Below are positions 10,561-32,056 of a stretch of 32,056 nucleotides of DNA, piece by piece. The notes below the pieces were generated by a model. The model was given only the letters and a program-made list of their open reading frames with translations, was not told where the DNA came from and ran no database searches. The first letter of the stretch is position 1; every line of letters begins with the position of its first letter. The stretch is from an uncultured Candidatus Saccharibacteria bacterium. GTDB taxonomy: Bacteria; Patescibacteriota; Saccharimonadia; Saccharimonadales; JAGQNJ01. A program made the position numbers and the translations under genes. Where the stretch lies: NCBI GenBank assembly GCA_964603625.1, contig CAZRVM010000002.1, positions 31,935 through 63,990 of the forward strand, given 5' to 3'.

Positions 10561-12696
10561 ATGAATAAAACTATAAATCCTCTTGGTAAAAAAATAATTA
10601 AAGTAGAAACCGATTTTTGTGGTAAAAAACTAAGCTTAGAGGTTGGTAGAGTGGGCTTTAGAACTACGGCATCTGTTATTGCGCGCTATGGCGAAACGGT
10701 AGTGTTGGCCAGTACAATGGTTGGCGACAAGCCAATTGAGGGGTTTGATTATTTCCCTTTAAGCATTGATTATGAAGAAAAGATGTACGCTTCAGGTAAA
10801 ATTAGTGGTTCAAGATTCATTAAGCGAGAGGGGCGCCCAAGCGAAGATGCGATTTTGATTGGGCGGTTGATTGATCGACCAATTCGCCCACTTTGGCCTA
10901 AGGGTTATCGTAATGAAGTTCAGGCAGTTGCAACAGTCTTGAGCTTAGACCCAACATTTCGGCCAGATATGATAGCGATGATTGCAATAAGTTCTGCCTT
11001 AATGTTAACTGGTGCTCCTTTTGACGGCCCAGTTGCAGGCATTAGGGTTGGTTTTAAAGAAGGTAAGCCAGTAGGCTTTTTAAGTGCTAAAGAGTTAGAG
11101 CAAAATAAATTAGACTTAGTCGTTGCTGGCACGAAAGATGCAATTATGATGGTTGAGGCAGGGGCTAATGAAGCTACAGAAAATGAGTTGGTTCAGGCTT
11201 TAGAATTTGCTCAGGAGGCTATTAAGCCTGCCGTAAATCTACAATTAGAATTAGCTCAAAAGGTAGGCGTTAAAGAACAAGAATATGAGCTTGCACTGCC
11301 CGATAAAGACATCCAACAACGAGTGGAAACTTGGCTAGAGGGTAGATTAGGGGCTCAGCTTCGTGCGCCATATCCTGAAAGAAATAACTTGGTAAATGAA
11401 CTAAGAGAAGCCATGAAAGATCATTTTATAGCCGAAATCGGTGATGAAGCCTATAAAGAGCAACGTCAAGAGTATGATGATGCTTTTATTTTAGCTATTC
11501 ACGGCGATGTTAGAGAGGGTATATTAAAAGAGGGGATTCGCCCAGATGGAAGGCAGTTAACAGAAGTTAGGCCACTTTCTAGTGAGGTTAATATTTTGCC
11601 AAGAGCTCACGGCTCAAGCCTATTTACGCGAGGCTTAACTCAAGCAATGAATATAGTTACTTTAGCGCCACTAAGCTACTCTCAATTGATTGACACAATG
11701 GAGAAAGACGAAGAAAAACGGTATATGCACCATTATAATGCACCAGGCTATACAGTTGGTGAGGTCCGTCGGCTAGGCAGCCCGGGTAGGCGCGAAATTG
11801 GACATAGTGCTCTTGCCGAACGAGCTTTGATGGCGGTTTTGCCAAGTGAAGCAGATTTTCCTTACGCAATTAGAAGTGTTAGTGAAATAATGAGTCAAAA
11901 TGGTTCTACTTCTATGGCGGCAACTTGTTCAAGCTGTTTGGCACTAATGGATGCGGGAGTTCCACTTAAACGGCCTGTAAGTGGTATTGCAATGGGTCTA
12001 ATGATGAATGGTGATTCGCCAGTAATACTTAGCGATATTGCCGATGCCGAAGATTTTGCTGGAGATATGGATTTCAAAGTTACTGGTACCTCTAAAGGGA
12101 TTACTGCTCTACAAATGGATATGAAAGTTCATGGTTTACCAGTAAAAGTTCTGGCTCAGGCTTTAGAGCAGGCAAAAGAGGGCCGAGCATTTATTTTAAG
12201 TCATATGCTAGAAACCATTGCACAACCAGCTGAGATGAGTAAATTCGCACCACGAGTTATTTCTATCAAGATAAATCCAGATAAAATTCGCGATGTGATT
12301 GGCAAGGGTGGTGAAATGATTAACAAAATTATTGCTGAAACTGGAGCTGAAATTGATATTAAAGATGACGGAACGGTTATGATTGCCAGCCCAGACAAAA
12401 AATCTATAGATGGTGCTACTCAGTGGATACAACAAATAACAGCAGAGCCAGAAGTTGGTACCATTTATAAAGATTGTCGGGTGGTGAGTGTGCTTGATTT
12501 TGGGGCGTTTGTTGAAATAATGCCAGGTCACGAAGGCTTGGTGCATGTAAGCGAAATGGCCGAAGAACGCGTTGCAAAACCTAGCGATGTAGTTGCAGAG
12601 GGTAATAAAGTTACAGTAAAATTAGTAGCGATAGATGAAAGAGGCCGGTTGCAATTAAGTATGAAAGCTGCTGCCCGTGAACAATCCAAGAAATAA
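10561..12696 (+). CDS. pnp: Polyribonucleotide nucleotidyltransferase (PNPase)
   Basis: 711 aa with two RNase PH-like domains, a KH domain (KIRDVIGKGGEMINKI) and an S1 domain (GAFVEIMPGHEGLVHVSE). The rpsO-pnp linkage is conserved. Confidence 0.95.
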   Translation: MNKTINPLGKKIIKVETDFCGKKLSLEVGRVGFRTTASVIARYGETVVLASTMVGDKPIEGFDYFPLSIDYEEKMYASGKISGSRFIKREGRPSEDAILIGRLIDRPIRPLWPKGYRNEVQAVATVLSLDPTFRPDMIAMIAISSALMLTGAPFDGPVAGIRVGFKEGKPVGFLSAKELEQNKLDLVVAGTKDAIMMVEAGANEATENELVQALEFAQEAIKPAVNLQLELAQKVGVKEQEYELALPDKDIQQRVETWLEGRLGAQLRAPYPERNNLVNELREAMKDHFIAEIGDEAYKEQRQEYDDAFILAIHGDVREGILKEGIRPDGRQLTEVRPLSSEVNILPRAHGSSLFTRGLTQAMNIVTLAPLSYSQLIDTMEKDEEKRYMHHYNAPGYTVGEVRRLGSPGRREIGHSALAERALMAVLPSEADFPYAIRSVSEIMSQNGSTSMAATCSSCLALMDAGVPLKRPVSGIAMGLMMNGDSPVILSDIADAEDFAGDMDFKVTGTSKGITALQMDMKVHGLPVKVLAQALEQAKEGRAFILSHMLETIAQPAEMSKFAPRVISIKINPDKIRDVIGKGGEMINKIIAETGAEIDIKDDGTVMIASPDKKSIDGATQWIQQITAEPEVGTIYKDCRVVSVLDFGAFVEIMPGHEGLVHVSEMAEERVAKPSDVVAEGNKVTVKLVAIDERGRLQLSMKAAAREQSKK

Positions 12697-18617: not shown

Positions 18618-20078
18618 TTATAAGCCTTTGGACGACTTTAGAGATTGAATTTCTGAACTAGTTGGCCAGGTATTAAATGTGCAACCTTGCAAACTAATTG
18701 ATTGTTGTTGCATAACAGGTGCAGGTTGTCCAGTGCCAGCACAATATCTGTGACCAAAGCCTAACCAGTGACCAGTTTCATGATTGATTACCATAGTTCT
18801 ATAACTATCTAGTGAACCACCTGCACTATTCCATGCGGGGCTGGCCCCTGACCATCTATCGAAATTAATGATTACATTATTTCCAACTCTACAACTCCAG
18901 GTACTATCACAGATTGTTGAACTAAAGCTTGGCACTAAACTTGCCTCGCTTAGCCACGCGGTATAATTGCATCCACTTGTTACAAAAACAAAAGAAACTT
19001 GCCCGCCAACAGACCATCCCTGGCTATCGTCATAAACAGCTTGGAGCTTATTTTTAAATTCACTTATATATGAGTCGCTAACTCCTTTGGTAGCAACACA
19101 ATAACGGTAAGTAATATGTTTTTTTGGAGCATTTTTTAGTGTGATTTTTGATTCTGTTTTTTCGTTAATGGCAGTTTTTATTTTAGTAATTGCTTCTGTT
19201 TTATTTTCTATGTCTATTCTAAATTGTTTGGCTATCTCGTTTAGTTTTTTATCTATTGCTTGAGAGCTTAAAATATAAGTAAAATCTTCTTCAATGTAAA
19301 AGTTTGCAATATCACTTTTGCTGAGCTGTTTTGTTTGATCTTCAAAAGTTAGAGTAATTTTAGTAGCTATACTTTTATTTAAATTATCTGTCAGCTCTGT
19401 TATATTTTTATAATTTTCTGGTGCTGGCACTTCACTAAAAGGAAGATTAATTTCTGTTTTATTTTGTTTAAGTTGATCTAAAATTGCCAAACTGGCGTCT
19501 TCATTATTTATTGAGGTTAGTGGTGTTGCTGGAATAATAATAAATTGCTGGTCTTGAAACTTAATGTGCGATCCACTTGGTGAACTTTCTAGCGCTGGTT
19601 TTAAGGATTCAATTTTTTGATTACTTATTGCTTTGTTTAATTCGTAACTAGCGTTATTATTTTTACTTTTAATAAAATTAACCAGAGGTATTTTGTAACG
19701 ATTTTGTTGGATACCTTTATTAACTTGTTGATAATTTATAGACAATCCAAGTTCTTCAGATTTAACAGTTTGAGCCTTATCTCTAACCTTTAGTGTTATT
19801 TCTTTGGGTAGTTGGATGATGTCTTTTATTTTTCTATCTAAATCTGTAAAAGATACAGATCCGATGGCCTGATTATTGAGTAATGTTTTGGGGTATGTTT
19901 TATTGCTATAGATAATAGTCAGTAAGATATTGGAAATTAATATTGAAGCAAAAACAACTAGAAGAAAAGCAAGAGAAATTTTATTTAAAAATAATTTATT
20001 AAATTTTAGGGAAGCTTTTTTTATAGGAACTTTAATTGAAAACGACATTTTAGATTGTGAACTTCGGCTAGATTTCAT
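18618..20078 (-). CDS. Membrane-anchored zinc metallopeptidase (HExxHxxGxxH), possibly DUF3152-like
   Basis: 486 aa. A basic N-terminus and one TM helix (ISLAFLLVVFASILISNILLTIIY) are followed by a long linker and a Cys-rich C-terminal domain with NHETGHWLGFGH...APVMQQQ. The family name is from memory only. Confidence 0.7.
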   Translation of the reverse strand: MKSSRSSQSKMSFSIKVPIKKASLKFNKLFLNKISLAFLLVVFASILISNILLTIIYSNKTYPKTLLNNQAIGSVSFTDLDRKIKDIIQLPKEITLKVRDKAQTVKSEELGLSINYQQVNKGIQQNRYKIPLVNFIKSKNNNASYELNKAISNQKIESLKPALESSPSGSHIKFQDQQFIIIPATPLTSINNEDASLAILDQLKQNKTEINLPFSEVPAPENYKNITELTDNLNKSIATKITLTFEDQTKQLSKSDIANFYIEEDFTYILSSQAIDKKLNEIAKQFRIDIENKTEAITKIKTAINEKTESKITLKNAPKKHITYRYCVATKGVSDSYISEFKNKLQAVYDDSQGWSVGGQVSFVFVTSGCNYTAWLSEASLVPSFSSTICDSTWSCRVGNNVIINFDRWSGASPAWNSAGGSLDSYRTMVINHETGHWLGFGHRYCAGTGQPAPVMQQQSISLQGCTFNTWPTSSEIQSLKSSKGL

Positions 20079-24124: not shown

Positions 24125-24763
24125 TTTTTTTAGCCCTTCTTTGTCTAATATGGTTATGGTGCCTTGTGATAATAATATTAATTTTCTGCGTTCCAAAATA
24201 CCTAATTCTCGGCTTGTTGTTTCTCGGCTGGCATTTATTGAGCTTGCAATATCTTGTTGTATTAGCGGAACATCTACAAGGGTACCATTATCAATAGTTT
24301 TCCCAAATCTTAGCGACATAGTTAGGATAAAAGACGCAAGCCTAGTTCTAACACTTCTATATTCTAAATTTAAAACCCTTTCTGATTGTATGCGGTATTG
24401 ATTAATAACTAGGTCTATAAATGGGTACATCGATTCGGGTTTATCTTTTAAATGTTGAATAAATGTTTCTCTGGTTAATCTGTAAACTTTTGTTGGTTTT
24501 AGAGCTTGATAAATTATGCTTCTGCCTTTACCCGTTACTGCCCAAATAAGTGGAAAAATTTCATTAGGTTTTCTAAAAATTAATAGATTTTCTTCGCCGT
24601 ATTTACTTATATTAAATGCTTTTACTAAACCTTCTTCTATGTAGTATACAAAGTTTGGAGATTCGCCTGGACGAATTATGTATTCATTTTTTTTATAATT
24701 TAGCTCTGTGCCTAGTTTGAATAAGTTTAAGAATACTTGTAATTGGCTGTCATCGCTTAACAT
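24116..24763 (-). CDS. Crp/Fnr-family transcriptional regulator
   Basis: An N-terminal cNMP-binding-like beta-roll (IIRPGESPNFVYYIEEGLVK) and a C-terminal HTH (IQQDIASSINASRETTSRELGILERRKLI). The 3' end overlaps the upstream convergent gene by 9 nt. Confidence 0.85.
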   Translation of the reverse strand: MLSDDSQLQVFLNLFKLGTELNYKKNEYIIRPGESPNFVYYIEEGLVKAFNISKYGEENLLIFRKPNEIFPLIWAVTGKGRSIIYQALKPTKVYRLTRETFIQHLKDKPESMYPFIDLVINQYRIQSERVLNLEYRSVRTRLASFILTMSLRFGKTIDNGTLVDVPLIQQDIASSINASRETTSRELGILERRKLILLSQGTITILDKEGLKKLL

Positions 24764-24769
24764 AGATTA

Positions 24770-24778
24770 ATTATTACA
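24770..24778 (-). promoter_or_regulatory. Candidate extended -10 (TGtAATAAT, reverse strand) 6 nt upstream of the crp-family ATG
   Basis: The reverse complement reads gTGtAATAATtaatctATG. Confidence 0.3.
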
Positions 24779-24822
24779 CAAAAACAAAAGGTGTAAACTG
24801 TAAATTTAGCTGAGAAATTTTG

Positions 24823-24838
24823 TGTGATTTATATCTCA
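24823..24838. promoter_or_regulatory. CRP-like operator TGTGA-N6-TCTCA
   Basis: TGTGAtttataTCTCA has one mismatch to TGTGA-N6-TCACA. It lies in the divergent region between the crp-family gene and the PH-domain gene. Confidence 0.4.
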
Positions 24839-24912
24839 TAGTTTGTGTGCTAAAGCTAACTGCAATCTACCAAGTAAAGTGACAAGATTATAAGTAGGAA
24901 GGAGGGGAAAAG

Positions 24913-25617
24913 ATGATAGATTTATTCAAAGTAGAAAGGCAGCTCTTAAAAATTGGTTTCAAAAATAAATTTTTTGGAAAGCCGGAAGTCAGGGAGTTGT
25001 GTCAAATTTTAACTCCGGACGAAGTTATAAGGCATGCAGTGATTGGGCATTACGAAGGGGGTTTTGCAATTCTTGTGGCTACCGATCTTAGAGTTCTTTT
25101 AATAGATAAAAAGATTTGGTTTTTAACTATGGAAGATATACGCTACGATATGATAGCCGAAGTTGATTTTTGTGCCAGGTTAATAGATGCGACAATCTCA
25201 ATAGTAACCTTTAACAAAACATTGGTTTTTAACAGTTGGCGTAAACAGTATTTAAGAGAACTATCTAAATTTGTACAACAGCGTGTAACTGAGATAAGAC
25301 ATATTGAGGCATCTTGGAACGAACTACAAAATACCAATATGTATGAGCCCGTTTCATTGCAGACCCTGCCTGCTACTAATGCTAGTAATCAGCAATATCT
25401 TACACAAACGCCAGTAAATAATTTTAGTAATAATTTAAATAGCGAAGAAAGCTTTTTAACCAGCTACCAACAAGCACAGGTGAAGATGCATTCGTTAGCT
25501 CATTTAGCCGGCAAGTTAGCTACTCAAGATTTTAACCGTCAAAAACCTTTAATTAGACCGCTATATCCTAGACCATCGCTGGCAACTCACTATAAACAAG
25601 GCGGTTTGAGGAATTAG
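24913..25617 (+). CDS. Bacterial PH-domain (YokE-like) protein with a Q/N/S-rich C-terminal half
   Basis: Strong SD (ggaaggagggg). ILTPDEVIRHAVIGHYEGGFAILVATDLRVLLIDKK resembles bacterial PH-domain proteins, from memory. Confidence 0.55.
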   Translation: MIDLFKVERQLLKIGFKNKFFGKPEVRELCQILTPDEVIRHAVIGHYEGGFAILVATDLRVLLIDKKIWFLTMEDIRYDMIAEVDFCARLIDATISIVTFNKTLVFNSWRKQYLRELSKFVQQRVTEIRHIEASWNELQNTNMYEPVSLQTLPATNASNQQYLTQTPVNNFSNNLNSEESFLTSYQQAQVKMHSLAHLAGKLATQDFNRQKPLIRPLYPRPSLATHYKQGGLRN

Positions 25618-25656
25618 GTAGGTAATTGATTATTTAATTTAAAATATCGTTTTTAA

Positions 25657-26736
25657 TTAAACATTAAATCTGAATTCAACCACATCGTTGGGTTGCATAA
25701 TGTAATTCTTGCCTTCTGTGCGAATTTTGCCTGCAGTTTTGGCTAAAGCTTCAGAACCTGCCGAAATGAGATCTGGAAAACTGATGATTTGAGCCGAAAT
25801 AAAGCCTCGTTCAAAATCACCGTGGATTACTCCTGCAGCTTGAGGAGCGGTCGAGCCTTTTTTGATTGTCCAGGCTTTCACTTCTTTTTCTCCAGCTGTT
25901 AAATAACTTTGAAGTTCAAGTACTTCATAGGCCGAATGAATTAATTGTTCAAGGCCAGAAGATTTTATGCCGTAGCTTTCAAGTAATTCGTGTTTTTCTG
26001 ATTCATCTAGTGTTTTGAGTTCTTCTTCTAATTTGGCGCAAATAAAAATGCATTGGTTTGGTGCAACGAGTTGAGTCAGCTCATTTATCTTAGAACTATT
26101 GCTTAGAGTATCCTCATCTACATTAAAAACATAGATTACAGGTTTGACAGTTAACAAATGCAAATCATTAACTTCCTGAATTTCATCTGCCTGCAATACA
26201 TTTCGGGCAAGGATACCTTTATTTAAAGACTCTTTAAGTTGTTGTAGCTTATCTACACTTTTTTGAAGTTTGGAGTTTGCTCTAGCTTCTTTGGTAAGTT
26301 TTGGTAAGCGTTTTTCTATAGTTTGAAGATCGGCTAAAATTAGCTCGGTATTAATAATGTCTATGTCTCTTTTAGGATTCAAATCAACATCAACATGTGT
26401 TACGTCACTGTCTGAAAATGCACGAACTAGATGACAAATGGCATTGCATTCTCGAATATTGGCCAAGAACTGATTACCTAAACCTTCACCTTTGCTTGCG
26501 CCAGCAACCAACCCAGCAATATCAACAAAGGTTACGGTGGCAGGAACGATTTTTTGGCTACCATATAATTTGGCTAATTTGTTAAGGCGTGCATCGGGTA
26601 TGGGTACAATCCCAGTATTTGGTTCAATGGTTGCAAACGGGTAGTTTGCAGCTAAAATATTATTATTAGTTAAAGCGTTAAAAAGTGTTGATTTGCCAAC
26701 ATTGGGCAAACCAACTATACCTATTGATAAGCTCAT
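25657..26736 (-). CDS. ychF: Ribosome-binding ATPase YchF
   Basis: IGIVGLPNVGKSTLFNALT, a TGS-like C-terminus and GDFERGFI. Confidence 0.95.
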   Translation of the reverse strand: MSLSIGIVGLPNVGKSTLFNALTNNNILAANYPFATIEPNTGIVPIPDARLNKLAKLYGSQKIVPATVTFVDIAGLVAGASKGEGLGNQFLANIRECNAICHLVRAFSDSDVTHVDVDLNPKRDIDIINTELILADLQTIEKRLPKLTKEARANSKLQKSVDKLQQLKESLNKGILARNVLQADEIQEVNDLHLLTVKPVIYVFNVDEDTLSNSSKINELTQLVAPNQCIFICAKLEEELKTLDESEKHELLESYGIKSSGLEQLIHSAYEVLELQSYLTAGEKEVKAWTIKKGSTAPQAAGVIHGDFERGFISAQIISFPDLISAGSEALAKTAGKIRTEGKNYIMQPNDVVEFRFNV

Positions 26737-26743
26737 AGTTTAT

Positions 26744-26752
26744 AGTATAACA
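26744..26752 (-). promoter_or_regulatory. Extended -10 (TGtTATACT, reverse strand) 7 nt upstream of the ychF ATG
   Basis: The reverse complement reads cTGtTATACTataaacATG. Confidence 0.4.
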
Positions 26753-26833
26753 GAGGTAAGATATTTTATGCATACATTAATTTTTAGTTTTGTAAGAAAT
26801 TATGAAATAAGTTTTTAATATTTTGCTTATGCT

Positions 26834-26842
26834 TGGTATAAT
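26834..26842 (+). promoter_or_regulatory. Extended -10 (TGgTATAAT) 11 nt upstream of cassette gene A1
   Basis: gcttatgctTGgTATAATcttaattaaatATGAGTGATG. Confidence 0.45.
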
Positions 26843-26853
26843 CTTAATTAAAT

Positions 26854-27318
26854 ATGAGTGATGCGGCAACATTCAATAACTCAGATTCAGAATCGGGTAA
26901 TGGTATGCATAGAAATAAAAAGATTATTTTAGCTGTTGTAGTGTTTATTGCCGTTTTCAGTTGGCTTGCCTGGAGCTTAACTCACAAAAAATCAGAGACA
27001 AACCAAGTTACAAATAATAATAGAAATTCTGGTGTAGTGGTATCTACGCCAACTCCAGAGCAAATCCAATCGGCCAAAGAGAACATCGGTACTTCAGGTA
27101 ACATAGTTTCTATTAACACAGATGCTAAAAAGATTACTCTAAAGATTACTGACACCTCTCAGCAGACTGAGTTCGCCTATACTGATAAAACTACCATACA
27201 TAAAGGAATTTCTAATGAAACCGTAACATTAGCCGATCTCAAACCAAACTTAGTTGTAAGCTTATCTTTTGAAGACACGCCCGATGGCAAGATAGCTAAA
27301 GATATATGGTACCAATAA
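26854..27318 (+). CDS. Cassette protein A1: small signal-anchored protein with a ~90-aa beta-rich ectodomain
   Basis: 154 aa with one TM helix (IILAVVVFIAVFSWLAWSL). Paralog of 29582..30040. Confidence 0.7.
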   Translation: MSDAATFNNSDSESGNGMHRNKKIILAVVVFIAVFSWLAWSLTHKKSETNQVTNNNRNSGVVVSTPTPEQIQSAKENIGTSGNIVSINTDAKKITLKITDTSQQTEFAYTDKTTIHKGISNETVTLADLKPNLVVSLSFEDTPDGKIAKDIWYQ

Positions 27319-29528
27319 TGAAGTTCATAAAGAAAGCAGCCCTATTAACCATTGTAAGCCTAATTAGCTTATTCCTTATGCAGTTAATCTTAATTGGTAA
27401 GGCAAGTGCAGCACCACTAGCTACTAGTTCACAACTAGAAAATATAAAGTCTTTATATATTCCAATGAAAGATTACCCAATAATTGGCTCAAACTGGCCA
27501 TCTAGAAATGAAGATGGCTGTGGAGGTTCAAAAGACCAACATAAAGTGTTTCCATGGCTAGGACAATACGATAACGAAGACGAAACTGATGGCAACCCAC
27601 TAGGTACAGGCAATCACTTAAATGAAGCCGGCAATTGCTCAAACAAATACCTAGATGGCGGTACCAATACAGCTCCACTCTACACTTCTCTAGCTGGTCC
27701 ATGGATTGACCCTACCGCTTATGCTGCTTGGGCGAATGGCAACGGTATGGGTCCTAATTGGAAGCCTCCAGTAGACACAACAGGTTGCGAAACAGACTCC
27801 GATGTAGTAAACCCATCATTTACCCAAAAGCATATTTGGGGGCAATGTGATATTGATATGACTAATCAATCTAGTGCTTTATTTAGCCGTATTGGTGCAC
27901 CCTATACTCCGAGTAACGATGGTAGAAACCTGTATTCTAATGGCTCAACATTATTTGTGCAGAAGTTTAATGTAACCGCTGAACAATTAAGCGTACTCGC
28001 AGACTTAAGCTATACACTAGATTTTAATGCTCAAGCTGATGATTTTTTTGCAGTGTATATTAACGGGGTTTTTGTTGGTGGTAGTACTGATACAGCAGCC
28101 GAAACTCAGTTAGCAGGTATAAATGTAACTAATATAATTAAAGAAGGAGAAAATGTATTAGCAATACAAGTTATTGATAAGGCTGTTTGGGTACAAGATG
28201 GTGATACTGAAACTCATAAATGGCGTGATGCAGGAATTGCATATGAACTAAATTTGACTCCAAGATCTTCTCAGGTTTATGATCTTGAACCAAGCTTTGA
28301 AATAGGTATAGGTGATAAAAAAGTTTATTTTAAGGTTAAAAATAACGGTGGTGGAGAATCTGTAAAGTCTGACGGGAAGGGAGTTACGGTTAAGAGGTAT
28401 GTCAAAATAAAAGGTGTAGAATATGTAATTAGCCCAGACGCAACTGATCAAAAAATTCTCGGAGGGAAAACGAATAATTATGATTTTGTTATACCTGCAA
28501 CCATAAACTTGACTCCTGGCGATGAAGTCTGTGCTTACATATCGGTTTCTCCTGCTTCAGGGGTAACTGGAGGAAATATCACTGTACCAGAAAGATCTAG
28601 TGGCAGTAGGACAAGTCCAATTTGCGAGACTATTTCTTCTAGACCTTATTTTAGAGCTTATGGGAGTGATGTGGTTGCAGGCAGAAGGTTTAAAAGTGCT
28701 TCTAATCTCTGTCGAGTCGATAATCAATATATTCGTGCTTATAATATTGGTTCTGGTACTAACTGGTCTGGTTCTGGTGTGCAATTTGCTGCAAGTGCTA
28801 CAGGCATTATTAATGGCTTTATGTCGGTTAGTATGCATAGTGGCTCTACTGGAACCGATGAAATTCCCAAACCAAACTCTGGTCTTACATTTAGTAATAC
28901 AGTCCCAAATAATCTAGGTAACGATGAAGGTGCTTACGCTGGCTGTATGGGTGATTATAAGACTCTAGCTGATAATATTATTAGTAATAGTAACGGTAGT
29001 ATTAACTGGGTAGGCAGTAGAACGATTTCTAGTTCGGCAGACTTAACTAATAATATGTTATTTGTGAATGGGAATTTAACTATTAATGGAAATATTGATT
29101 CAGAAAATACAACCTACAGTAAACTTAGTGATGTAAGAACTAACTTAATTGTTGTAATGGGTAATATCTATATAAAATCAAATGTAGCTAATTTAGATGG
29201 ATTATTTGTAGCATTGCCAGATGGCGGTATGGGGGGAGGAGGAGTTATAAACACTTGTGGCACTACTTTAGATCCGCCTGTTGCTGGTGAATGCGATAGT
29301 TCATTAACGGTTAACGGCGCATTCTTGGCTGATAGGGTATTGCTTAATAGGCTTCATGGAGATATCAATAGTGCTACTGAAAAAGAAGCGGACGATAGCA
29401 CTAAAATGGCCGAAAAATTCATCTTTACGCCAGACTTTTACTTGGGTTTACTAAATACTAAAAACACTCCACCGCAAATCGGCTCTTATAAATACGATTC
29501 AATTAGTAATTTACCACCTGTTCTCTAA
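27318..29528 (+). CDS. Cassette protein B1: secreted Cys-rich multidomain protein (~736 aa)
   Basis: The ORF track starts at 27306. Alignment to B2 (MKFIKKAALL vs MKSLKKLLFF) favours the ATG at 27318, which overlaps the A1 stop (TAATG). It has a Sec signal peptide with an ASA|AP site. Domain signatures are listed in the findings. Confidence 0.8.
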   Translation: MKFIKKAALLTIVSLISLFLMQLILIGKASAAPLATSSQLENIKSLYIPMKDYPIIGSNWPSRNEDGCGGSKDQHKVFPWLGQYDNEDETDGNPLGTGNHLNEAGNCSNKYLDGGTNTAPLYTSLAGPWIDPTAYAAWANGNGMGPNWKPPVDTTGCETDSDVVNPSFTQKHIWGQCDIDMTNQSSALFSRIGAPYTPSNDGRNLYSNGSTLFVQKFNVTAEQLSVLADLSYTLDFNAQADDFFAVYINGVFVGGSTDTAAETQLAGINVTNIIKEGENVLAIQVIDKAVWVQDGDTETHKWRDAGIAYELNLTPRSSQVYDLEPSFEIGIGDKKVYFKVKNNGGGESVKSDGKGVTVKRYVKIKGVEYVISPDATDQKILGGKTNNYDFVIPATINLTPGDEVCAYISVSPASGVTGGNITVPERSSGSRTSPICETISSRPYFRAYGSDVVAGRRFKSASNLCRVDNQYIRAYNIGSGTNWSGSGVQFAASATGIINGFMSVSMHSGSTGTDEIPKPNSGLTFSNTVPNNLGNDEGAYAGCMGDYKTLADNIISNSNGSINWVGSRTISSSADLTNNMLFVNGNLTINGNIDSENTTYSKLSDVRTNLIVVMGNIYIKSNVANLDGLFVALPDGGMGGGGVINTCGTTLDPPVAGECDSSLTVNGAFLADRVLLNRLHGDINSATEKEADDSTKMAEKFIFTPDFYLGLLNTKNTPPQIGSYKYDSISNLPPVL

Positions 29529-29555
29529 AGCTATAAATAGTTTGGCTATCTAGCT
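29529..29555 (+). terminator. Weak hairpin after the B1 stop
   Basis: AGCTA (29529..29533) pairs with TAGCT (29551..29555) and ATAG (29537..29540) pairs with CTAT (29546..29549). It is AT-rich, and only a partly T-rich tract follows. Confidence 0.25.
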
Positions 29556-29561
29556 TATGAT

Positions 29562-29570
29562 TGTTATAAT
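29562..29570 (+). promoter_or_regulatory. Extended -10 (TGtTATAAT) 11 nt upstream of cassette gene A2
   Basis: gcttatgatTGtTATAATttacgataagtATGAGTGATG. Spacing is the same as in copy 1. Confidence 0.45.
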
Positions 29571-29581
29571 TTACGATAAGT

Positions 29582-30040
29582 ATGAGTGATGTAGTTGCGT
29601 TTAATGACTCAGATTCTATAAAAAAGAGCATTCGTAATAAGAAGTTAGTCATTGCTGTAGTGGTTTTAATACTTATCTTGGTCGGATTATTAGCTTGGGC
29701 TTTGACTCATAAAAAACCAATAAAAAAACAAACACCAAATAGTTTGAATTCGAGTAACGTGATAGCCAAGCCAACTCCAGAACAAATCAAACTAGCCAAA
29801 GAGAACATAGGAACATCTGGTAAGATAGTTTCTATTAATACAAATACTAAAACAATTACATTAAAAAAAGCAGATAACTCCCAAGTAGATTACATATATA
29901 ACGATAAGTCTACTGTACATAAGAGTGTATCTAACTTAGATGCCAGTTTTTCTGACCTCAAAGAGGGTTTAGACGTAAGTCTATCTTATGAAGAAACAAG
30001 CAATGGAAATATTGTTAAAGATGTATGGTATCTAAAATGA
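29582..30040 (+). CDS. Cassette protein A2 (paralog of A1)
   Basis: 152 aa with the same architecture. Shared blocks are MSD..FN.SDS, AW.LTHKK, PTPEQI..AKENIGTSG.IVSINT and VSLS.E.T..G.I.KD.WY. Confidence 0.7.
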   Translation: MSDVVAFNDSDSIKKSIRNKKLVIAVVVLILILVGLLAWALTHKKPIKKQTPNSLNSSNVIAKPTPEQIKLAKENIGTSGKIVSINTNTKTITLKKADNSQVDYIYNDKSTVHKSVSNLDASFSDLKEGLDVSLSYEETSNGNIVKDVWYLK

Positions 30041-32056
30041 AATCACTAAAGAAACTACTATTCTTTGCTATATATAGCCTACTAGTATTAAGTTTTAGCC
30101 AAGTAGTACTAAGCACAAAAGCTCACGCTGCTACCCTTGCAAGTAGTTCAGATCCAGTCATTAAATCACTCTATATTAAAATGAGCGACTACCCAATAAA
30201 TGGCTCTAACTGGCCATCTAGATACAACGATGGCTGTGGTGGTTCACCAGCTTACCCACTAAAAGTATTTCCATGGCTAGGGCAATACCAAGATGAAGAT
30301 ATATACGATGGAGATCCACTAGGAACAGGCAATTACATAGACGAAGTAGGAAATTGCTCCAACAAATATCTTGATGGTGGGACAAATACAACCCCACTTT
30401 ACACTTCACTTGCAGGTCCATGGATTAGTCCAGCTGCTTTAGGTGGATGGGCTAACGGTGGTGGAGGTGGCTGGGGAGCGCCAGTAGATACTCAGGCGGG
30501 GGGGTGTATTGTTGACTCTGATGTATTAAGACCAGGTTTTACTCAAGCACATTTATGGGGAAGTTGTGACCTAGACTACACAAATCAATCCGATGCTTTG
30601 TATAGCAAAATTAGCGTTCCTTTTAAGGATGATTCATCTGATCCTGGTTTTGACGGTATGAGTCTTTACTCAAATGGTACGACCTTGTTTTATCAAGAGT
30701 TTAATCTAACTAATGCTCAACTAAATGCTTTAAATAATAACACGGAGAGTCTATATTTAGATATACAAGCAGATGATTGGTTTGTGGCTTACATAAACGG
30801 AGTTAATATAGCTGGTCACCAAGTTTCTGCTGAGCCAAGAAGAATTACCATTGCCGATACTAGTACACTTGTTGCTGGTACTAATAAATTAGCTATTCAA
30901 GTAATTGACAAAGCAGTCTGGATTGATAGTGTTAGCAACCCCTTGCAATTATCCCGTAACTCAGGTGTTTCTTACCAATTAAGTACTATTTCAAATTCCG
31001 CAGTTAGATATGATTTGGATCCAGATTATACTATTTCACCAGACGGTAGGACTATAGACTTTAGTGTTGTTAATAGTGGGGGTGGCACTTCTAGAAAAGC
31101 AGATGGATTTGGAGTAACTGTAACTAGAGAAGTATATATAAATAATTTTCCAATCTCTTTGCAACCTCCAGTAATGAATGACCAACAGATCGTTGGTGGA
31201 GAAAACAAGCCCTATCAATATTTATTACCAAACACCATTACTTTAAATGTCGGTGACGATGTTTGTGCATACATTAAGGTAGAACCGGCTTCTGGTATTA
31301 CAGATGGTGCTGTAGATAGTTCAATAGCGGAGAAGATTAAAGAGGCTAGTAAGTGTGTAACTATTAGCTCCAAACCCTACTTTAGAGCCTACGGTAATGA
31401 TGTAATAGTAGGTAGAAACTTTGCTAATCCTTCTGGCTGTATTGTGAATAGTGGTGTTAAGCAATCTATACGAGCATTTAATTCTAATTCAGGTTCTGGT
31501 TGGTCTGGAGCAGGCGTACAATTTGCCGCAAGTGCTACTGGTATAATAGATCACTTTATGTCGGCTAGTATGCATAGTGGCTCTCCTGGAACCGATGATA
31601 TTCCCAAACCAAATGCTGGACTTACATTTAGCAATACAGATTCAGATAATCTAGGTAACGACGAAGGAGCTTACAAAGGCTGTATGGGCGACTACAAGTC
31701 TCTAGCAAACGACATTGTTGCAAAGGGCATAGATAGCTGGAAGGATGCTTCAAATTTTACACTTTACTCGGGTAATTTGAACGAATTAGATGATCATATT
31801 TTATTGATTAAAGGAAACTTATACATTAATACAAATATACCTAGTAGCCCTACAGGTGATCCAAGCTACTCAAGTATTAGCGATATTAAAACTAACTTAA
31901 TAATTGTACAAGGTAATATTTTCATATCCCCAGTAATAAAAGATATAGACGGATTATTCATAGCACTAAAAGATAGTAACTCTGGTCTTGGGGGCGTTAT
32001 TAATACCTGTGGAAATACTGATACACCAGTTGGTAATTGCAAGAGTGAATCTTTAA
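30037..32056 (+). CDS. Cassette protein B2 (paralog of B1), 5' 673 codons; the 3' end lies beyond the window
   Basis: Absent from the ORF track because no stop occurs in the window. The ATG at 30037 overlaps the A2 stop (ATGA). I translated the frame by hand to 32055 and found no stop. The signal peptide ends AHA|AT. It is collinear with B1 throughout. Confidence 0.8.
   Translation, partial: MKSLKKLLFFAIYSLLVLSFSQVVLSTKAHAATLASSSDPVIKSLYIKMSDYPINGSNWPSRYNDGCGGSPAYPLKVFPWLGQYQDEDIYDGDPLGTGNYIDEVGNCSNKYLDGGTNTTPLYTSLAGPWISPAALGGWANGGGGGWGAPVDTQAGGCIVDSDVLRPGFTQAHLWGSCDLDYTNQSDALYSKISVPFKDDSSDPGFDGMSLYSNGTTLFYQEFNLTNAQLNALNNNTESLYLDIQADDWFVAYINGVNIAGHQVSAEPRRITIADTSTLVAGTNKLAIQVIDKAVWIDSVSNPLQLSRNSGVSYQLSTISNSAVRYDLDPDYTISPDGRTIDFSVVNSGGGTSRKADGFGVTVTREVYINNFPISLQPPVMNDQQIVGGENKPYQYLLPNTITLNVGDDVCAYIKVEPASGITDGAVDSSIAEKIKEASKCVTISSKPYFRAYGNDVIVGRNFANPSGCIVNSGVKQSIRAFNSNSGSGWSGAGVQFAASATGIIDHFMSASMHSGSPGTDDIPKPNAGLTFSNTDSDNLGNDEGAYKGCMGDYKSLANDIVAKGIDSWKDASNFTLYSGNLNELDDHILLIKGNLYINTNIPSSPTGDPSYSSISDIKTNLIIVQGNIFISPVIKDIDGLFIALKDSNSGLGGVINTCGNTDTPVGNCKSESL

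Follow-up and report, generated by a model that had tools for sequence, protein, structure and literature searches.

Paired genes ahead of pilM in Saccharibacteria may encode a modular, pilus-associated adhesin and its accessory protein

The 32,056-nucleotide stretch of an uncultured Candidatus Saccharibacteria genome considered here (assembly GCA_964603625.1, contig CAZRVM010000002.1; hereafter the window) ends in two consecutive copies of a gene pair, in each of which a gene for a small membrane-anchored protein (A1, A2) is followed by one for a large exported protein (B1, B2). Based on the open reading frame list and its translations, the two A-B cassettes occupy positions 26854-32056 on the + strand. 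The cassettes are the leading genes of a type IV pilus (T4P) locus, and their placement before pilM is near-obligate. B belongs to a phylum-wide, unannotated family with a conserved terminal peptide and, as modeled, a constant module of apparently novel fold. The A-B feature is real and non-trivial, and we infer that it is of the kind of a pilus-associated modular adhesin with an accessory protein. In the explanation we favor, B would be a non-homologous analogue of PilC/PilY1 docked by its C-terminal peptide, and A a chaperone specific for the variable module of B; this explanation is given a probability of about 0.45.

The link to the pilus comes from genes beyond the end of the window. Contig L004, which is 99.7% identical to window positions 24461-32056, extends past that end, where it completes B2 (751 amino acids) and continues with a third cassette, A3 (182 amino acids) and B3 (757 amino acids). 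Further copies were to be looked for by contig extension according to the initial annotation of the window, and L004 supplies one. In L004, pilM begins 49 nucleotides past the third cassette and is followed by pilN, pilO, a gene for 78 amino acids (p78) and pilB. A more distant relative, L001, encodes two cassettes and then pilM-N-O-p78-pilB-pilT-pilC-pilin. The order in which B directly precedes pilM-pilN-pilO-p78-pilB-pilT-pilC, all on one strand, is thus seen in L001 and L004, and it recurs in three further lineages (L008/9, L010 and L012) with B proteins of only 28-32% identity.

A survey of 57 loci, nearly all from distinct species-representative genomes, gave the same picture. Among the 52 loci with pilM, the last B gene ends at most 700 nucleotides upstream of pilM on the same strand in 50, with a median distance of 133 nucleotides. 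A single B copy is the rule (44 loci), tandem copies being found in 8 of the 52 (two copies in seven loci, three in one). The linkage of A and B in other genomes, put forward in the initial annotation as a test, is conserved across dozens of species. Three of the five loci without pilM run out of contig; the others are L036 and L057, the latter a true exception to pilM linkage. The cassette in L036 (6282-11005) is a second one at the opposite end of the same pilus locus, where it is preceded by pilA, pilD, genes for three minor pilins, a pilX-like gene and an integrase gene. The tyrosine-recombinase-like gene on the opposite strand beside this extra cassette is a hint of cassette mobility. The 78-amino-acid gene between pilO and pilB (L004:13175-13408) is kept in nearly all loci and has only a faint match to archaeal Pilin_N; in S. 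epibionticum it corresponds to SEML1_0107, which is essential.

The B family is large and confined almost exclusively to Candidatus Saccharibacteria/Saccharimonadales genomes. In an exhaustive profile search against clusters formed at 50% identity, at least 6048 cluster representatives were retrieved at E<=1e-3, of which 3266 also passed E<=1e-30; repeating the word-indexed search for homologues, now with the alignment as query, yielded no additional sequences. Source annotations call family members only "hypothetical protein", and the family appears undescribed in the Saccharibacteria pilus literature. The part shared family-wide corresponds to B1 residues ~320-736, while the N-termini vary and total lengths range from ~600 to 1550 amino acids. 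The family is defined by its conserved C-terminal ~440 amino acids and not by the jelly roll of B1. The shared part falls under no Pfam or NCBIfam model, and its profile matched no PDB sequence.

The C-terminal 437 residues of B1, modeled from an 81-sequence alignment, gave a confident structure (mean predicted local distance difference test score, pLDDT, 84; predicted template modeling score 0.80) with an immunoglobulin (Ig)-like sandwich followed by a beta-rich module of ~300 amino acids. Foldseek searches of PDB and BFVD with this model gave nothing at E<=1e-3, and such weaker matches as there were fell on the Ig domain only. With a pLDDT above 90 for that domain, the Ig-like half of the "CARDB/Ig-like" segment proposed in the initial annotation stands; the CARDB half (PF07705) was dropped for want of a Pfam match. 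Similarly, the beta-solenoid proposed for the C-terminal region could not be confirmed, as no beta-helix structure matched the C-module model. That neither protein carries a recognizable named family or catalytic motif agrees with the empty Pfam, NCBIfam, PDB and BFVD searches for the constant module. Six Cys residues in the C-module region are conserved across the whole family, and D451, N616, D627, R678 and E699 are invariant polar residues. The extreme C-terminus is ungapped in 113 of 113 complete representatives, reading Y(100/113)-[DQ]-[YS]-I-[TS]-[TS]-L(105)-P(91)-P(110)-[IV]-L(107)-COOH, and within the modeled C-terminal half only the tail that bears it is of low confidence. All inspected members have a hydrophobic N-terminus, mostly a Sec-type signal peptide with an AxA site. 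A few members (e.g. P0036 and P0048) start with what looks like an uncleaved anchor and are apparently A-B fusions.

The variable N-module of B1 and B2 consists of a four-Cys region and a jelly roll. The jelly roll gave sub-threshold Pfam and NCBIfam matches to sugar-binding N-domains of the glycoside hydrolase family 2 (GH2)/LacZ type; the Pfam scores were 20.1 bits against a cut-off of 23 for BetaGal_ABD2 and 17.5 against 28 for Glyco_hydro_2_N. Jelly roll and Ig domain together matched GH2 N-terminal domains by Foldseek at E ~1e-10, over alignments of only ~230-290 columns and in a first, poor full-length model (pLDDT 54.7) that served for this comparison only. These matches support the carbohydrate-binding-like jelly roll of the initial annotation. 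The GH2-like part belongs to the variable module and is missing from most B family members.

B2 and B3 are encoded in the same genome, yet their first ~330 residues are unrelated and homology starts exactly at the Ig domain; from residue 444 onward the two proteins are ~97% identical. In DNA their C-modules (window 31239-32056 against L004:9654-10468) are 90% identical, much closer than those of B1 and B2. Since unrelated N-termini are joined to nearly identical C-modules, the B2/B3 mosaic shows swapping of N-modules along with gene conversion of the constant part.

The A proteins vary with the N-modules. Of the 66 B genes in the survey, about 50 overlap a gene in front of them that encodes a protein of 104-335 amino acids with one transmembrane helix near residue 28. 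Given that 41 of 54 of these A-slot proteins have more Lys/Arg on the N-terminal flank of the helix, a positive-inside bias, their orientation is likely N-in, C-out. The ectodomains split into unrelated families: a helical type with two Cys (18 members), a TPR type (12 members, two of which score above the Pfam threshold for TPR_2), a ~320-amino-acid type (5 members; no Pfam match in the two scanned) and the beta type of the window. SurA_N_3 was found by Pfam in 5 of 42 long B-family members, and this indirect reading, by way of presumed A-B fusions, suggests that the ~320-amino-acid type is SurA-like. The window-type N-module is present in 6 of 6 cassettes with a beta-type A and in 0 of 49 others, counts to be read with the six cassettes standing for about three independent lineages. 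Other multi-member N-module clusters are homogeneous for partner type, except for partners outside the named families. The family of the A ectodomain co-varies with the N-module of B, the window pair being one of several interchangeable matched pairs. The ectodomain of the window type itself gave only sub-threshold Pfam matches, to CusF_Ec (12.6 and 14.3 bits; cut-off 27), DUF1344 (16.6 bits; cut-off 23.1) and SpoIIIAH, and no PDB sequence was matched by a profile of it. In GCA_964529015.1 (L001:9523-9822 and 12270-12569) the DNA of both A genes together with the stretches upstream is 100% identical over at least 300 nucleotides, and the best segments of the adjoining B genes reach only 73-88% identity, which suggests either recent gene conversion of A or an assembly artifact.

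Given the above, the cassettes may be understood as heading the T4P-1 locus, that of the retractile pilus, in a saccharibacterium. B would be a Sec-exported, disulfide-bonded modular surface protein with the variable N-module as its binding part, and the constant Ig domain, C-module and 11-residue C-terminal peptide would couple it to the pilus system. By analogy with PilC/PilY1, the free C-terminal peptide could be donated as a beta-strand to a minor pilin of the PilK/PilX type; B would thereby ride at the pilus tip as an adhesin and may help to prime assembly. A, a type-II membrane-anchored partner translationally coupled just before B and with an ectodomain specific for its N-module, would probably act as a chaperone or holder, or mask the binding site, up to the loading of B. 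Where cassettes stand in tandem, their different or diverged N-modules could then provide several binding specificities for one pilus. A role in attachment, raised in the initial annotation, is what we too would infer for B. A broader version, in which the B family is the phylum-wide counterpart of PilC/PilY1, every N-module comes with a membrane-tethered chaperone gene of its own, swapped A-B cassettes before pilM set host range and the peptide YDYITTLPPIL-COOH docks to the tip, is more tentative still.

Several points weigh against docking of B at the tip. The adjacency of B and pilM may reflect co-regulation only. PF05567 gave no match to B at E<=1, the constant module is not a beta-propeller and no PilY1 structure matched it, so the likeness to PilY1 is one of analogy only. 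The tail of B contains Pro-Pro, which is unusual within a beta-strand. In S. epibionticum T4P-1 is essential, yet ychF (SEML1_0103) and pilM (SEML1_0104) are immediate neighbors. Priming by B therefore cannot be a universal requirement, except if B has its gene at another site or PilX1 provides the strand in cis, and an accessory or specificity role fits better than one in the core machine. In addition, TM7x already has a candidate tip protein in PilX1, which carries a jelly-roll domain. The hydrophobic N-terminus of B is long and could stay in place as an anchor instead of being cleaved, and the A ectodomain in the window is without a chaperone-like signature.

The main rival is that B is a tapirin-like adhesin anchored in the cell wall or S-layer and merely co-located or co-regulated with the pilus genes, its C-module holding it to the envelope while A aids export or folding. 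The general adhesin architecture and the T4P adjacency would fit this, as would the promoter-like site that each cassette has of its own and the dispensability of B at the pilM position in S. epibionticum. However, no SLH, LysM, CWB or LPXTG element was detected with Pfam and NCBIfam, and a conserved free C-terminal peptide on a flexible tail is atypical of wall anchors. The pre-pilM placement in 50 of 52 loci across deep lineages also exceeds what loose co-regulation would give. We consider a wall-anchored B less likely than docking at the tip. A sortase substrate was rejected, as B ends in LPPVL-COOH with nothing after it and lacks the LPXTG, hydrophobic segment and basic tail of such proteins.

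The remaining possibilities are less likely again. TcpF and CofJ dock to tip minor pilins via a flexible terminal segment. B might likewise be a soluble colonization factor or effector released by pilus extension, as these type IVb cargoes are, with its C-terminal peptide serving as a secretion or tip-binding signal. Its Sec export, its place in a pilus locus, its conserved flexible terminal peptide and the precedents cited in PMC13533445 all speak for such cargo. On the other hand, the ~300-amino-acid constant module is far larger than a secretion signal requires, the monoderm envelope offers no outer membrane to cross, and a lectin/Ig architecture with a membrane-anchored partner better suits a retained adhesin, making release improbable.

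Slightly less probable is a structural role for A and B within the pilus machine, in which they form a conduit or collar through the cell wall or S-layer that replaces PilP/PilQ, with TPR proteins as pilotin-like partners. The first position of B in the pilMNO operon, the resemblance of the TPR partners to pilotins and the size and beta-rich nature of the conserved C-module are in keeping with a conduit. Neither a secretin nor a PilP signature was found, though, the N-modules of paralogues in one genome can be unrelated, B copy number varies from 1 to 3, the partner ectodomain is not conserved, and B is missing from the S. epibionticum locus although T4P-1 is essential there. Two identities of this kind were tried and discarded: a secretin (PilQ/GspD, PF00263) with N0/N1 domains, for which B gave no Pfam or NCBIfam match, and a prepilin, since the class III signal (G|F/M-T-L-x-E) and N_methyl (PF07963) are missing from A and B. 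True pilins in related loci do carry the class III signal. Least probable is an extracellular glycan or peptidoglycan hydrolase using the jelly roll as a carbohydrate-binding module, since the likeness to the GH2 N-terminal jelly roll and Ig domain is accompanied by neither a TIM barrel (Glyco_hydro_2_C) nor any other detected catalytic domain, the N-domain matches are sub-threshold, the GH2-like part is variable and missing from most family members, and the constant module matches no enzyme fold.

The anatomy of the cassettes in the window (Table 1) supports the initial description of a duplicated pair. A1 and A2 are 52% identical (pairwise protein comparison, E 1e-42), B1 and B2 are 53% identical over 680 columns (pairwise protein alignment, E 0.0), and self-comparison of the window yields DNA repeats with a period of 2.72-2.75 kb and 71-80% identity; the duplication far exceeds chance expectation. 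As the best DNA segments of B1 and B2 are ~75% identical for an amino acid identity of 53%, their synonymous sites are saturated. The reported stop-start overlaps were recovered in both copies, TAATG at 27316-27320 for A1/B1 and ATGA at 30037-30040 for A2/B2; in both B genes an in-frame ATG 12 nucleotides further upstream would extend the overlap to 13 or 16 nucleotides. The description of B as Cys-rich, multidomain and Sec-exported and of A as a small, signal-anchored partner likewise holds. Each A protein has one hydrophobic helix, which in A1 spans about residues 24-42 and is followed by a beta-type ectodomain of ~90 amino acids. The signal peptides of B, assessed by sequence rules, have the AxA sites ASA|AP in B1 and AHA|AT in B2, with A31 invariant in the alignment. 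All ten Cys of mature B1 align with Cys in B2 in the pairwise alignment, as had been noted, and 8 of the 10 are also in register across an 11-sequence alignment; the Cys-rich region of B1 contributes C68, C107, C157 and C177. Within the C-module of B1 the motifs PYFRAYGxDV, SGxGVQFAA, GLTFSN, GNIYI..LDGLFVA, TC..C..LTVNGAF and AExFxFxPxxYL can be recognized.

Table 1. Positions of the cassette genes, promoter-like sites and B1 domains in the window
Feature	Position	Strand	Description
A1	26854-27318	+	154 amino acids; bitopic membrane protein; acidic and basic N-tail
B1	27318-29528	+	736 amino acids; alternative in-frame ATG at 27306
A2	29582-30040	+	152 amino acids; A1 paralogue, 52% identity
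B2	30037-32056	+	673 amino acids visible, cut by window end; alternative start 30025
Promoter-like site, cassette 1	26815..26842	+	TTAATA, 16-nucleotide spacer, TG-TATAAT
Promoter-like site, cassette 2	29542..29570	+	TTGGCT, 17-nucleotide spacer, TG-TATAAT
B1 signal peptide	27318..27410	+	residues 1-31; Sec-type, predicted cleavage ASA|AP
B1 variable N-module	27411..28265	+	residues 32-200 Cys-rich; residues 201-316 predicted galactose-binding-like jelly roll
B1 Ig-like beta-sandwich	28266..28577	+	residues 317-420; opens constant region
B1 constant C-module	28623..29477	+	residues 436-720; six family-conserved Cys
B1 C-terminal tail	29478..29528	+	ends YDSISNLPPVL-COOH, then stop codon; disordered in monomer model

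Each cassette may be transcribed from a promoter of its own. An extended -10 element (TGnTATAAT) ends exactly 12 nucleotides before the ATG of both A1 and A2, so at A1 the leader would be very short or absent, and no Shine-Dalgarno sequence was found at either A gene (window 26834-26853 and 29562-29581). This suggests that the A transcripts are leaderless or nearly so. Overall, the region has no excess of promoter-like matches, and the argument is from the identical geometry of the two sites and not from their number. No terminator-like site lies between B1 and A2. Phase variation was considered and found to have no support, as the only notable tracts, G6 in B1 and G7 in B2 (30496-30502), are identical in the 5-6 independent near-identical assemblies that cover them; a G7 tract is itself unusual for a genome of 35% G+C.

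The remainder of the window, which has a G+C content of ~35%, encodes housekeeping functions (polA, fpg, holA, truB, pnp, an RNase J gene, ftsK, rpsF, ssb, efp, tlyA and ychF), and neither an Rfam family nor a tRNA was found anywhere in the window. Its saccharibacterial source accords with the reduced genome that the initial annotation had supposed. Adjoining ftsK at 18618-20078 on the - strand is a gene for a 486-amino-acid, DUF3152/metallopeptidase-like secreted protein, a position kept in relatives. In a 99.7%-identical strain (L003:6880-9295) a three-gene insertion, encoding proteins of 361 and 40 amino acids and a Peptidase_M15 protein of 287, lies between ychF and A1; the window is without it. 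The interpretation given in the initial annotation is partly supported. Its description is accurate and none of the outcomes that it named as refuting came about, but the key facts (linkage to the pilus, a constant module, partner modules that match) only emerge beyond the window.

How ultrasmall episymbiotic bacteria of the candidate phyla radiation recognize and bind their hosts is an open question in which type IV pili have been implicated experimentally, and the binding components of the essential T4P-1 pilus are not known. In environmental Saccharibacteria the T4P-1 locus nearly always opens with B, yet B is unannotated. It may have been overlooked since the best-studied, mammal-associated model strain has no gene at this position. 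If docking at the tip is correct, B would be a concrete determinant of host specificity and a second, independent structural solution to the PilY1 problem, and the type and number of cassettes could serve as a genomic marker of host range in uncultured lineages. The swapping of A-B cassettes before pilM would then determine, and allow to evolve, which host bacteria are seized.

Several known systems resemble parts of this arrangement. Residues ~200-420 of B1 are like the jelly roll and Ig unit of GH2 glycoside hydrolases, a likeness limited to the window-type variable module with the Ig domain, whereas B has no TIM barrel. Like YfgM (TPR_21) and PpiD/SurA_N, the A-slot proteins are single-pass and N-in, and their ectodomains include TPR and SurA_N; A1 and A2 differ in having a small beta domain without a significant match. 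TfcP of Myxococcus, documented as an accessory protein in support of a PilY1 (PMC8833165), offers a parallel for A.

Within the Saccharibacteria, the pilus locus of Nanosynbacter lyticus TM7x encodes two large proteins, PilX1 and PilX2, which lack a PilD signal and have been proposed to be PilY1-like. In the TM7x study T4P locus 1 starts at pilM1 (TM7x_00415), with PilX1 at the far end. B is not PilX1: the latter (TM7x_00475) is encoded downstream of the pilins, matches the T4aP_pilX profile and is of the minor-pilin type, whereas B lies upstream of pilM and is not pilin-like. The TM7i paper makes no mention of A/B-type genes.

The tapirins of Caldicellulosiruptor are, like B, large Sec-exported binding proteins encoded beside the T4P locus of a monoderm. 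Tapirin paralogues are also adjacent. We know of no co-varying partner gene for tapirins. Their C-terminal domain is structurally unique (10.1101/359786) and is the part that binds, whereas the C-module of B is its constant part; no tapirin structure was among the Foldseek PDB matches of the B C-terminal model.

The closest comparison is with PilC/PilY1. These proteins are exported through signal peptidase I, contain several disulfides and carry diverse N-terminal adhesin domains ahead of a C-terminal domain that is conserved; with the ~10 residues at their end they complete the PilK minor pilin beta-sheet, which locks them to the tip, and they often occur as two paralogues, as in Neisseria (PMC13533445). 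B has no sequence or fold relation to them and is without the PF05567 beta-propeller, is encoded before pilM rather than after pilX, has a co-varying membrane-anchored partner and belongs to a monoderm. B is predicted to share with them export by Sec and signal peptidase I in place of a prepilin signal, and both carry variable N-modules on a conserved C-terminal domain, disulfides, linkage to pilus genes, paralogues within a genome and a short conserved peptide at the extreme C-terminus. Because the match is feature by feature but the fold is unrelated, B is best regarded as a likely analogue of PilC/PilY1 and not as a member of that family.

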